In this document: positions 17,452-26,850 of the stretch, piece by piece
Numbering within the stretch: the stretch's first letter is position 1
Layout: every line of letters begins with the position of its first letter
Assembly (NCBI GenBank): GCA_013166775.1
Contig: JABLTJ010000007.1
Span: forward strand, 156,551 to 220,550
Origin: Promethearchaeati archaeon
Lineage (GTDB): Archaea; Asgardarchaeota; Heimdallarchaeia; Heimdallarchaeales; Heimdallarchaeaceae
DNA length: 64,000 bases
Direction of reading: 5' to 3'
Position numbers and translations under genes: made by a program
The notes under the pieces: model-generated
The model's database searches: none
What the model was told of the DNA's origin: nothing
The model's input: only the letters and a program-made list of their open reading frames with translations

Positions 17452-19755
17452 GTGAATATTATGGGTAATCTATTATTACTAATTGCATTATTGACTGGTG
17501 TACTTTCAATCGTAGCAGCGATCTATTTTACAATAATTGTAATGAGAGAAGATCGTGGAAATGAAAAGATGATTGAGGTCTCAGGATATATAGAAACAGG
17601 TGCGAAAAGCTTCCTCAAAGTCCAATATTTGGTATTAGGAGTATTTGTTTTCGTACTTTTCATAGTGATACTATTATTCTTACCAACAAAGATGACAGGA
17701 GGAGCAGTACCAGTAACTGCTGGAATCCTTAATTGGCAACAAGCTATTGCTTACCTTATTGGTTCAGGAGCTTCAATGTTTGCAGGATGGTTAGGATTAA
17801 TAGTTGGAGTAAAGACCAACACAAGAGCAGCACAAGGAGTAACAAAAGGTATCAAACAAGGATTTGATATCGCTTTCTTTGGTGGATCCGTTATGGGTCT
17901 AGCAGTAGTAGGTGTTGCATTAATAGGTGTTGGTGGAATCTATTGGATTTTTGCAGCAGATCCGGCTCAAGCAACCCAAATTGTTCTAGGGTTCAGCTTT
18001 GGAGCATCTGGAATTGCTTTATTCATGAAATGTGGAGGTGGAATTTATACCAAGACCGCAGATGTGGGTGCAGATCTAGTAGGTAAAGCTGAATACAATT
18101 TACCAGAAGATGATGTTAGAAATCCAGCAACTATAGCCGACAACGTCGGCGATAACGTCGGGGATATTGCAGGTATGGGATCTGATCTTCTAGACTCTTA
18201 TGTTGCATCCATCGTCGCAGCGATGATATTAGCTGTTATATTTGGTGCAACTGGAGCTGAAGCTGATTTCGTTATTTTACCAATACTTCTATCAGCAGCT
18301 GGTTTGATTGCTTCACTGATTGGTATATTCCTAATCAAATACTTCGGTGGAGACAATCCAGGTAAATCTTTGAATCTTGGAACTTATCTTGCTACTGGAC
18401 TTTTTGCACTTTTTGCAGCTGTTATCATAGGAATCATGATTGCTTCTATTCCTGATACAGTGGTTGATCGTGGTGCTGCAATCTGGCAATATTGGAAAGA
18501 TTACATTGCAGTAGTTCTTGGACTGTTAGCAGGAATAGTTATTGGTTGGACAAGTGACTACTACACAAGAGATGATAAGAAGCCAACAAGAAGTATTGCT
18601 GAGGCAGCACAAGAAGGGCATGCAGTTGTTATCCTATCAGGATTTTCCTATGGGTTAATGAGTGTAGTACTTCCTTCTATTGGAATAATTGTAGCTATGG
18701 CAGTATCCTTCTTACTTGATGGTGTTTTTGGAGTAGCTATGGCAGCAGTTGGTATGCTAGCAATAGTTGGAACAATAGTATCCAATGATGCTTATGGACC
18801 AATTGTCGATAATTCACGAGCTATTGCTGAACAAGGTGGACTAGGAGAGGATATCATTCGTAAAGCTGATGCTCTAGATTCAGCAGGAAATACCGCTAAA
18901 GCAATCACTAAAGGATTCGCTATCGGTGCAGCTAATCTAGCAGTACTAGCGTTGCTGTTCTCATTCGTACATGAAGCAGGAATTGCCAGGATAGATATTT
19001 TGAATGTCAAAGTCTTGATTGGTGCATTCTTCGGTGTTGTAGTTCCAGCATTGTTTTCAGCACTACTAATTGTAGCAGTTCAAAGAAACGCTGCAAAAAT
19101 GGTCTTAGAGATTAGGAGACAATTCGAAGAAAATCCAGGTATCTTGGAAGGTACTGAACCAGCTGATTTCAATAGTACAATAGCTATTGCTACAAGAGGG
19201 GCATTAAGAGAATTAGTACTACCAAGTGTGATATCTATTCTTGTTCCAATAATGGTAGGAATAGTGTTCGGTGTAGCAGCTCTAGGAGCATTCTTAGCAG
19301 GAGCTATTCTGTCAGGATTCGTGTTCGCAATCATGATGGCTAACTCTGGTGGAGCATGGGATAATGCCAAAAAATTCATCGAAGACGGCAATCTAGGCGG
19401 AAAGGGAACTGAAGCCCACAAAGCATCTATTACTGGTGACACTGTTGGTGATCCATTCAAAGATACTGCAGGACCAAGTATTAACACATTACTAGTTGTT
19501 ATGTCATTAACAGCTTCTATCTTCATGGGTTTATTAGCCAAAATCAACTTTGGTGAAGGTTTATTCCCCGATGCATGGTTTGGTGTTGATAGTGTAACTG
19601 GTGTAACATCCGGATTATCTGGTGTCTTGAACACTGAGATTTGGGTTCTTATTGTTGTTCTAGTTTCCGTAGCAGCTTTAGCTATCTGTCTTTGGATTGT
19701 TATCAAACTCGTAAGATCTAAGAACATCATTCAAAAACTATTAAAGAAAGAGTAA
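17452..19755 (+). CDS. hppA: Membrane-bound H+-translocating pyrophosphatase, probably K+-independent
   Basis: GGGIYTKTADVGADLVGK, EDDVRNPATIADNVGDNVGD, GDTVGDPFKDT; GNTAKA has Lys at the K+-dependence position. Confidence 0.95.
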   Translation: MNIMGNLLLLIALLTGVLSIVAAIYFTIIVMREDRGNEKMIEVSGYIETGAKSFLKVQYLVLGVFVFVLFIVILLFLPTKMTGGAVPVTAGILNWQQAIAYLIGSGASMFAGWLGLIVGVKTNTRAAQGVTKGIKQGFDIAFFGGSVMGLAVVGVALIGVGGIYWIFAADPAQATQIVLGFSFGASGIALFMKCGGGIYTKTADVGADLVGKAEYNLPEDDVRNPATIADNVGDNVGDIAGMGSDLLDSYVASIVAAMILAVIFGATGAEADFVILPILLSAAGLIASLIGIFLIKYFGGDNPGKSLNLGTYLATGLFALFAAVIIGIMIASIPDTVVDRGAAIWQYWKDYIAVVLGLLAGIVIGWTSDYYTRDDKKPTRSIAEAAQEGHAVVILSGFSYGLMSVVLPSIGIIVAMAVSFLLDGVFGVAMAAVGMLAIVGTIVSNDAYGPIVDNSRAIAEQGGLGEDIIRKADALDSAGNTAKAITKGFAIGAANLAVLALLFSFVHEAGIARIDILNVKVLIGAFFGVVVPALFSALLIVAVQRNAAKMVLEIRRQFEENPGILEGTEPADFNSTIAIATRGALRELVLPSVISILVPIMVGIVFGVAALGAFLAGAILSGFVFAIMMANSGGAWDNAKKFIEDGNLGGKGTEAHKASITGDTVGDPFKDTAGPSINTLLVVMSLTASIFMGLLAKINFGEGLFPDAWFGVDSVTGVTSGLSGVLNTEIWVLIVVLVSVAALAICLWIVIKLVRSKNIIQKLLKKE

Positions 19756-19783
19756 TTCTACTCTCTTCTTCTTTTCTTTATTT
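19669..19783 (+). repeat. Array repeat copy 1: native hppA 3' end plus dyad/T-tract
   Basis: ...ATCTAAGAACATCATTCAAAAACTATTAAAGAAAGAGTAATTCTACTCTCTTCTTCTTTTCTTTATTT. Confidence 0.85.
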
Positions 19784-19856
19784 GACTCTTTATTCTTATG
19801 AACAATATTATCTTCTTTGAGGAAATCTTTTATTCCCATCTCTGGTTTTTGAACCA

Positions 19857-26279: not shown

Positions 26280-26706
26280 AACATTGACAGTCAATTCTAA
26301 TTTGCTTAAAGAAAAATTAGCTTATAGTAAAAAATACATTGAGAGGCTTAGAAAAATAATTGAAGTCTCTAAGGAAGAGTTTTTAGAAGATTTTTCACTT
26401 CAATTGCAATCTGAAAGGATTTTTGAAGTTATCTCACAATTAATGTTAGATATTTGTACACATATCGTAGCTCATTCAAGTGAAACTCCTCCATCAACAT
26501 ATTCTGATTGCATTAAGAAACTAGTTAACATCGGTGTCATCGGAGAGGATGAATCAGATGATTTCATTAAAATTGTAAAAATGAGAAATTTACTAGTTCA
26601 TCAGTATGGAATAGTTGATCCAGAAATTCTTTTTGAGAGTTTAAAGTTGATAGATTCTGATTTTTCAAGATTCAAAGAAAAAATACTCTCATGGTTACAG
26701 AATTAA
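26269..26706 (+). CDS. HEPN/DUF86 RNase toxin (HepT-type)
   Basis: RNLLVHQYG Rx4HxY motif; paired with MNT. Confidence 0.92.
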   Translation: MKGETLTVNSNLLKEKLAYSKKYIERLRKIIEVSKEEFLEDFSLQLQSERIFEVISQLMLDICTHIVAHSSETPPSTYSDCIKKLVNIGVIGEDESDDFIKIVKMRNLLVHQYGIVDPEILFESLKLIDSDFSRFKEKILSWLQN

Positions 26707-26802
26707 TAACAATTTAAAAAACAAGATTTTAACCTACAAATTTCACAATTCAGAGAGTCTAGAGCTTGAGAATATTAATAGAATCTAATCAATAGTTTAA
26801 AT

Positions 26803-26850
26803 AAAAATCTTAAAGAAAGAGTAATCTTACTCTCTTCTTATTTTCTTTTC
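26803..26850 (+). repeat. Array repeat copy 6, abutting the stop codon of the convergent peptidase gene
   Basis: AAAAATCTTAAAGAAAGAGTAATCTTACTCTCTTCTTATTTT; 41/42 identical to 25660-25701. Confidence 0.9.

Follow-up and report, generated by a model that had tools for sequence, protein, structure and literature searches.

This report concerns a tandem array of small gene modules located behind hppA, the gene for a H+-translocating pyrophosphatase, in a metagenome-assembled genome (MAG) of the Heimdall group of Asgard archaea (hereafter called G000; 3.85 Mb in 115 contigs, 88.7% complete). The array is part of a 64,000-nucleotide stretch of contig JABLTJ010000007.1 (positions 156,551 to 220,550 of the forward strand), hereafter called the window. 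Its modules are set apart by co-oriented copies of a ~55-nt repeat, R, which spans positions ~-21 to ~+35 around the hppA stop codon. The genes and repeat copies at the locus are the following, in window coordinates.

16078-17382: MFS transporter gene, left neighbour of hppA, syntenic in 14 relatives' loci
17452-19755, + strand: hppA, H+-translocating pyrophosphatase of 767 aa, the anchor of the array (Pfam PF03030, E 1.5e-225)
19733-19786, + strand: R1, the functional hppA tail, with the TAA stop codon (19753-19755) in a hairpin (19744-19770) followed by a T-rich tract (dG -8.6 vs -1.3 +/- 1.5 for shuffles)
19857-21548, + strand: lctP, L-lactate permease, module 1 (Pfam PF02652)
21563-21620, + strand: R2, short form (blastn E 6.6e-9)
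21647-22492, - strand: Fpg/Nei DNA glycosylase (Pfam PF01149 and PF06831)
22574-22617, + strand: copy 3, decayed, probable (70% identity over 44 nt; genome-wide E 0.13)
22632-23096, - strand, and 23238-23591, + strand: two small predicted membrane open reading frames (ORFs), no family match, GC 0.25-0.28
23760-23810, + strand: claimed copy 4, unconfirmed (73% identity in the repeat family; genome-wide E 19)
23813-24811, - strand: Amidohydrolase_2, GC 0.417
24942-25553, + strand: TetR regulator, divergent to the amidohydrolase (Pfam)
25595-25712, + strand: R5, long form, in which the final ~29 hppA codons and stop, the hairpin and the T-tract persist as a fossil (tblastn 53% over 30 aa)
25839-26706, + strand: toxin-antitoxin (TA) pair of MNT (nucleotidyltransferase) and HepT (HEPN RNase) (Pfam PF18765 and PF01934)
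26803-26855, + strand: R6, short form (91% identity to R5 over 53 nt)
26838-27820, - strand: convergent HExxH gene in two overlapping frames, with its stop codon and K-rich tail in the T-tract of R6
30234-31193, - strand: first right-hand gene syntenic with relatives, ortholog of a 320-aa gene behind the M29 peptidase gene in the related genome G012 (63% aa identity, E 7e-138)

The calls of hppA, lctP, Fpg/Nei, amidohydrolase, TetR and MNT/HepT, initially made without database searches, were confirmed by Pfam profiles.

A preliminary description of the window had reported six co-oriented copies of the repeat. Repeat finding in the window brought four of them (R1, R2, R5 and R6) into register, and a genome-wide blastn search with copy 1 as the query (19660-19790), in which noise starts at ~E 1e-3, retrieved copy 5 at E 1.7e-17 (117 nt, 75% identity), copy 2 at the value given above and copy 6 at E 1.8e-8. 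The long form is evident from a 107-nt pair (19669-19775 and 25595-25701) with 76% identity. All copies in G000 are on the + strand. In the four solid ones, the final ~7 hppA codons are accompanied by the TAA stop codon within an 11-13-bp hairpin and by a T-rich tract, with hairpin dG values of -6.7 to -8.9, compared with -1.3 +/- 1.4 for shuffles; the stop-codon region of hppA thus lies inside R1, as first described. Copy 3 has retained the left half alone. Its 11-mer GAAAGAGTAAT occurs 15 times in the genome, including 3 times in the array on the + strand, and with a chance of ~0.01 of being a stray copy, it is probably genuine. The claim of a fourth copy fared less well, as its sole basis is a degraded dyad and 14 of 15 positions matching the hppA codons ATCTAAGAACATCAT, and its blastn score is not significant; it is unconfirmed and possibly a heavily decayed copy. 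No R copy was found at 27780-28200 or 30080-30300.

The repeat is specific for this locus, in agreement with the preliminary description. A fuzzy scan of all 115 contigs with a 23-nt core (up to 3 mismatches) and an nhmmer profile built from the four solid copies, whose next-best match has an E value of 0.013, both identified the hppA locus only. Together with the blastn search, these scans rule out a generic terminator or a chance repeat. No Rfam family matched the R array.

We then turned to the 24 other species genomes of the genus, which together with G000 form a set of 25 MAGs that are 78-92% complete. A pattern scan for R was run on the 25 genomes, with the reversed pattern as a control that gave no matches. 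All true R copies are found on contigs that carry hppA or continue an array, always on the hppA strand and downstream of hppA. Pattern matches on other contigs, six within one conserved coding sequence (...EERGFAKERVINTL...) and one at the end of another gene, were discarded as not being R.

Seven of the ~17 species with an assembled hppA 3' end harbour co-oriented R arrays behind hppA with differing cargo, namely G000, G001, G010 (over two contigs), G012 (in three contig variants), G013 (with 4 copies), G015 and G018. The gene content downstream of hppA therefore varies among relatives, as had been anticipated. Modules are 0.7-4 kb in size and contain 1-5 genes on either strand, and the mixed orientation first described for G000 extends to the relatives. 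The cargo of the latter includes M20 peptidase, ParE, PAPS reductase, bPH and HTH-bPH proteins, NosD-like beta-helix, HEAT, beta-propeller, DUF7019, MNT and LVIVD proteins. In none of the 24 other genomes does hppA adjoin any of the genes that follow it in G000. Of note, the HTH-bPH cargo gene of G012 (L036:3201-4175), also present in G001 and on contig c74 of G010, reads in frame into R, with protein ends ...VIQKILKEE* in G012 and ...VIQKILKKE* in G010, indicating that its last ~10 codons and stop codon are borrowed from a fossil hppA tail.

An empty junction, also expected from the preliminary description, exists in G017, where hppA and its terminator are followed by ~50 nt and then by the promoter region of an M29 peptidase gene. 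One to several modules separate hppA from the M29 gene in G005, G012 and G013. The conserved right neighbours in relatives are the genes for the M29 peptidase, a TPR protein and the 320-aa protein. The ancestral junction was thus not between hppA and the convergent 'peptidase' gene, as had been suggested, since the latter is specific to G000 and adjoins hppA in no relative searched. The M29 gene of G000 is on another contig, and the gene at 30234-31193 likely marks the outer edge of the variable region. The contigs of many relatives stop at hppA or just beyond, in keeping with variation of the locus within populations, and accessory genes stacked there are therefore likely to be under-assembled. 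Judged by this comparison of genomes, the hppA 3' end is a hotspot of gene gain and gene exchange in this Heimdall-group genus.

These distributions bear on the simplest explanation, that R is a small mobile or generic element, such as a terminator motif or a miniature inverted-repeat transposable element, that landed between resident genes, the modules being ordinary neighbours. R does look like a two-way intrinsic terminator and is located in intergenic gaps. However, it occurs nowhere else in the 25 genomes, its copies hold fossil hppA codons and are always hppA-oriented and downstream of hppA, the species have entirely different genes between the copies, and the junction is empty in one of them, all of which makes this explanation extremely improbable.

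Several modules are common to two or more species, including an M20+ParE module in G012 and G013 (96.7% nt identity), a bPH pair in G001, G010 and G012 (94-95%) and a PAPS-reductase module in G010 and G013 (93%). They have different neighbours in each genome, and the adjoining hppA of G001 is only 73% identical to those of G010 and G013. At these common modules, the sequence left of ~-21 travels with the left module and the hairpin loop variant with the right context, indicating that exchanges occur inside R.

Traces of recombination are also found in hppA itself. In G001, the MFS gene is G010-like (87.7% identity) and the fossil tail is G010/G013-like (85-88%), while hppA is G002-like (89.6%, compared with 73% to G010). 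According to these identities, the whole hppA allele of G001 has been replaced, with 270 nt of the old tail left behind. G012 contigs c12 and c35 and the metagenome contig L139 (Ga0255055_10008987) show a G001-like layout with other fossil lengths. At the loci L027 (G001), L034/L035 (G012) and L139, a fossil B-type C-terminus of 34-140 codons lies 100-150 nt behind an A-type hppA (tail ...VKHPKVMEKIxKKK), and the upstream MFS gene and the downstream genes are still of the B-type lineage. A-type hppA tails do not recur within their own genomes. On G012 contig c192, the hppA tail is a patchwork of A-type and B-type codons over positions -27 to -1, which looks like heteroduplex repair rather than a clean crossover. 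In G001, the left part of the distal R matches the proximal R of the same genome rather than the R found at the homologous module of other species, a pattern indicative of gene conversion. Taken together, the apparent allele replacement, the patchwork tail and the putative gene conversion point to homologous recombination at this locus. The displaced tails have a bimodal length distribution, with ~21-33 nt in 13 copies and 50-420 nt in 5 copies, and the junctions cluster at the A-run (-21), which is compatible with microhomology or with a specific site.

On the basis of these comparisons, we propose that the array was built and reshuffled behind hppA by host homologous recombination, without a dedicated integrase, a reading to which we give a probability of about 50%. 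The conserved hppA gene would be the long stretch of homology at which incoming DNA of related strains or species is anchored, and the far end of this DNA would be joined illegitimately, often at the A-run at -21. Such a join would leave the old tail of the recipient behind the new cargo, in the form of a short R or of a longer fossil. Once present in several copies, R would provide portable homology patches, and crossovers and gene conversion within R could swap, delete and re-insert modules, including by way of excised circles. Several modules may have come in together. The allele replacement with its fossil, the patchwork tail and the fossils of 21-420 nt fit such a capture by an anchor and an illegitimate end, and the presence in G000 of a second array with an unrelated hairpin repeat (on contig C94, see below) indicates that the process is not bound to one sequence. 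As for the survival of exactly the -21 to +35 segment, the opposite strand of R likewise forms a hairpin with a T-run behind it, and it is plausible that noncoding copies are retained because R, with its A-run, hairpin and T-run, may function as a two-way terminator.

The preliminary description had proposed that modules were added serially at an attachment site, with a duplication of the site in each event. Strictly serial addition of one module per event by an attachment-site recombinase is not supported. The displaced tails range from ~21 to ~420 nt and are mosaic, copies have converted each other, and whole hppA alleles have been replaced. Homology-driven recombination fits these features at least as well as attachment-site addition.

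Homology-facilitated illegitimate recombination is known in naturally transformable bacteria, in which a long homologous anchor combined with a microhomology join enables the insertion of foreign DNA. It would explain both the variable length of the fossils and the replacement of hppA alleles. To our knowledge, it has not been described as generating ordered, reshufflable arrays with a recurring unit of ~55 nt, nor has it been described in archaea. A related process generates the orphan 3' ends of rhs and cdiA genes, with new 3' ends acquired by homologous recombination in the conserved upstream part and old ends pushed downstream as a fossil array. In those systems, the cargo consists of a toxin tip and an immunity gene and is functionally tied to the anchor, whereas the cargo of the hppA array is unrelated to hppA, and most of its displaced tails are only ~55 nt long.

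A number of observations weigh against array building by homology alone. The 13 displaced copies with short tails, ~9-10 of which are independent, have a common left edge at -21 to -33, and the PAPS-reductase module stops at the identical base beside two different combinations of R and right context. Both are more orderly than expected from random illegitimate joins and are reminiscent of a fixed crossover point. R copies are perfectly identical to each other only over short stretches (~20-25 nt), and the at least 4-5 R-R exchanges among five close species would call for recombination that is efficient at short homology or for a structure that stimulates it. Compensatory changes (in G015, G016 and A-type tails) maintain the hairpin, often with one bulged base, as would likewise be needed by a recombinase that recognises structure. 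The Logan contigs of SRR26538807 and SRR26538809 yielded no excision circle, no read of an empty site and no polymorphism within the species; those with the exact MNT and LctP proteins have an unchanged gene order. Finally, a recombinase could have escaped assembly given the completeness of the MAGs.

These observations lend some weight to a possible, if rather doubtful, alternative, namely an integron-like recombinase acting in trans, which would recognise R and other hairpin tails by their sequence or folded structure and insert modules, or excise them as circles, at a fixed crossover near the left edge or the centre of R. In addition to the recurrent boundary at ~-21, the partition of left sequence and loop variant between left module and right context, the common PAPS-reductase endpoint, the short perfect identity and the maintained hairpin with its frequent bulge, the dyad of R may be divided into 12 bp, a 2-bp centre (TC) and 12-13 bp, an arrangement resembling the crossover sites of invertases and resolvases. 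TA modules are found inside the arrays, as in large chromosomal integrons. The candidates for such an enzyme are two small, stand-alone serine-recombinase-like core proteins of the genus (239 and 249 aa, PF00239), with an intact YVRTSTADQ motif, present in 23 of the 25 genomes with 84-92% aa identity and encoded in G000 at C65:89633-90349 (L120) and C80:26355-27059 (L121). They are candidates only, and their genes are near none of the arrays examined; they could serve in chromosome dimer resolution or have another role. Moreover, the loop or spacer varies from 1 to 8 nt among copies, mosaic tails, inter-copy conversion and fossils of 21-420 nt are unlike the products of clean site-specific crossover, and arrays with unrelated repeats occur in the same genome.

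The similarities between the hppA arrays and integron cassette arrays, including clusters of attC sites lacking integron-integrases (CALINs), are the presence of 1-2-gene cassettes, of co-oriented, short, hairpin-forming repeats and of TA cassettes, and CALINs likewise lack an adjacent integrase. The hppA array differs from integrons by the absence of IntI, by cargo on both strands, where integron cassettes are mostly promoterless and array-oriented, by repeats derived from the tail of the neighbouring gene and by fossils of variable length. The attC consensus pair R'' (RYYYAAC) and R' (GTTRRRY) spanning the dyad was found in 0 of 28 copies, and the R hairpin spans ~27 nt, compared with 55-141 nt for the attC palindrome, so that the array is distinct from attC arrays, as the preliminary description had held. 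Integron cassette arrays and CALINs have been reported in Archaea, with an enrichment in Asgard (PMC9668308).

The hppA array also shares features with modules delimited by pdif sites (integrative mobile elements exploiting Xer, IMEX), as both consist of small integrase-less modules between short sites, which a host recombinase would move. Each pdif module is framed by 28-bp XerC/XerD sites that form an inverted pair. In contrast, all copies of the hppA repeat are direct, and no Xer homolog was detected. The PF00589 signature has no match in G000, with a search control positive in 14/14 genomes, and the best score with a XerA model was E 0.07. Tyrosine recombinases are sporadic in the genus (13/25 genomes), and neither these nor XerA were detected in the array-bearing G000, G010, G012 and G013.

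A third explanation is that the array is a decayed tandem island, similar to tycheposon or tRNA islands, formed by the successive integration of integrase-bearing elements with an attP identical to the hppA tail, which later lost their integrase and replication genes. The layout corresponds to that of tRNA- or tmRNA-anchored tandem islands, in which partial copies of the target separate the elements and newcomers push older ones outwards (10.1101/2020.12.28.424599). As in these islands, including those of Prochlorococcus, the hotspot is at the 3' end of a conserved gene, co-oriented partial tail copies lie between cargo blocks, with older blocks displaced outwards, and direct repeats that correspond to the partial 3' end of the target bound the blocks. 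The tycheposon cargo of niche and defence genes can be likened to that of the hppA arrays, and the identity block, like an attP, regenerates the hppA 3' end. The genus also has its sporadic tyrosine recombinases, and a 76-codon frame on G000 contig C96 (3239-3430; L122), which matches only the C-terminal positions 94-155 of the 161 in PF16795 (SSV-type archaeal integrase), possibly represents what is left of a split or decayed integrase. Nevertheless, this island would differ from known ones by its protein-coding anchor, by modules of merely 0.7-4 kb devoid of integrase and replication genes, and by the fact that several of its hosts have no detectable tyrosine recombinase. In a survey of ~25 modules in 8 genomes, no recombinase, integrase, integrase fragment or replication gene was found. 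The ORFs at 13.6-33.4 kb of the window do not encode a recombinase either, in line with the initial statement that none is nearby. No R-bearing element was identified in IMG/VR, and of four matches in metagenome contigs, considered as possible evidence of an R-carrying mobile element, L139 alone is genuine and represents another hppA locus. The integrase-free layout also recurs behind other anchors. Since integrase remnants are wholly absent from the array, a decayed island is unlikely.

Self-comparison of the G000 genome revealed further arrays of direct repeats spaced by kilobases. On contig C94 (41165-47039; L154), four to five co-oriented hairpin repeats of ~45-58 nt lie between blocks of 1-2 genes. 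Their sequence is unrelated to R and corresponds to the end of a ~300-nt noncoding region (C94:~46560-46950) conserved in 23 of the 25 genomes. Extra copies of this type of tail are found nearby in G001 (C1:620-637 kb), G013 (C62), G006 (C209) and G016 (C83). In addition, six small contigs (C8:99-8882, C40, C57, C69:695-5104, C88 and C89:128-4333; L151-L153, L155, L156) harbour at least 16 co-oriented copies of a GC-richer, structured repeat of ~80-100 nt (core ...AAGCGTGTCCTTCCCGAACCGGACTGCTAGCC...GTGTGAGTCCTGAGCATC), 0.5-3 kb apart with 1-2 ORFs between them. One of these copies adjoins a 105-nt piece that resembles the 3' end of 23S rRNA (C8:8715-8819, 79% identity), and a loose resemblance to the 23S end is found on C52. 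No Rfam family matched the ~80-100-nt repeat or the other repeat arrays.

With these additional arrays, a broader proposal can be tentatively put forward, which we regard as rather unlikely at this stage. Heimdall-group archaea might capture genes in a general manner, with hairpin tails of conserved genes (hppA, a conserved noncoding RNA locus, rRNA genes) used as portable recombination sites analogous to attC and processed by a structure-recognising host enzyme. Examples of such an enzyme would be the two small serine recombinases conserved in the genus or a nuclease specific for hairpins. If this were the case, these archaea, members of the archaeal lineage closest to eukaryotes, would possess an integron-like platform without an integron integrase.

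Asgard archaea have large genomes with many acquired genes, and few mechanisms of gene gain have been described for them, the routes reported so far being viruses, aloposons and predicted integrons (PMC8813620, PMC9668308, PMC11529989). The hppA locus represents a concrete, recurrent route, by which TA pairs, transporters, repair enzymes and regulators accumulate behind a conserved housekeeping gene and are exchanged between species. Full-text literature searches retrieved no description of hppA-anchored arrays or of R. Among known systems, tRNA- or tmRNA-anchored tandem islands come nearest in layout and the CALINs of Asgard MAGs nearest in function. The combination of a protein-coding anchor, integrase-free modules, mixed strands and variable leftover tails sets the array apart from both. 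If homology alone drives the process, no dedicated machinery is required for ordered cassette arrays to arise, and repeat-delimited arrays in MAGs should be interpreted as integrons only with caution. The existence of a dedicated enzyme would amount to a new recombination system, and to a categorically new one if the enzyme were shown to be structure-specific.

As to the individual genes of the G000 locus, the amidohydrolase gene (GC 0.417) and the membrane ORFs (0.25-0.28) lie on either side of the genome mean GC of 0.329, and no DNA homolog of the former was found in the genus. No other record of the exact G000 HppA protein was found. The counterparts of lctP, fpg and MNT-HepT that relatives have at other loci carry no R. 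The sole lctP gene of G000 is the hppA-array copy. In G001, G002, G007 and G017, lctP is at another, repeat-free locus, the flanks of which map to G000 contig C75 (31-36 kb), where other small ORFs but no lctP are found (C75:31088-36423).

The T-tract of R6 does encode the stop codon and the basic tail (...IKKKRK*) of the convergent ORF at 26838-27518, as the preliminary description had noted, but the label 'peptidase' given to that gene has no support from Pfam or NCBIfam, its HExxH motif notwithstanding. Its two frames are 27491-27820 and 26838-27518, with no long ORF over 27820-28160, and it is probably a decaying gene. On the other side of the array, upstream of the MFS-hppA pair, two adjacent genes for Ras/Roc/Arf-like small GTPases, which are typical of Asgard archaea, are found at 14804-15969 of the window.

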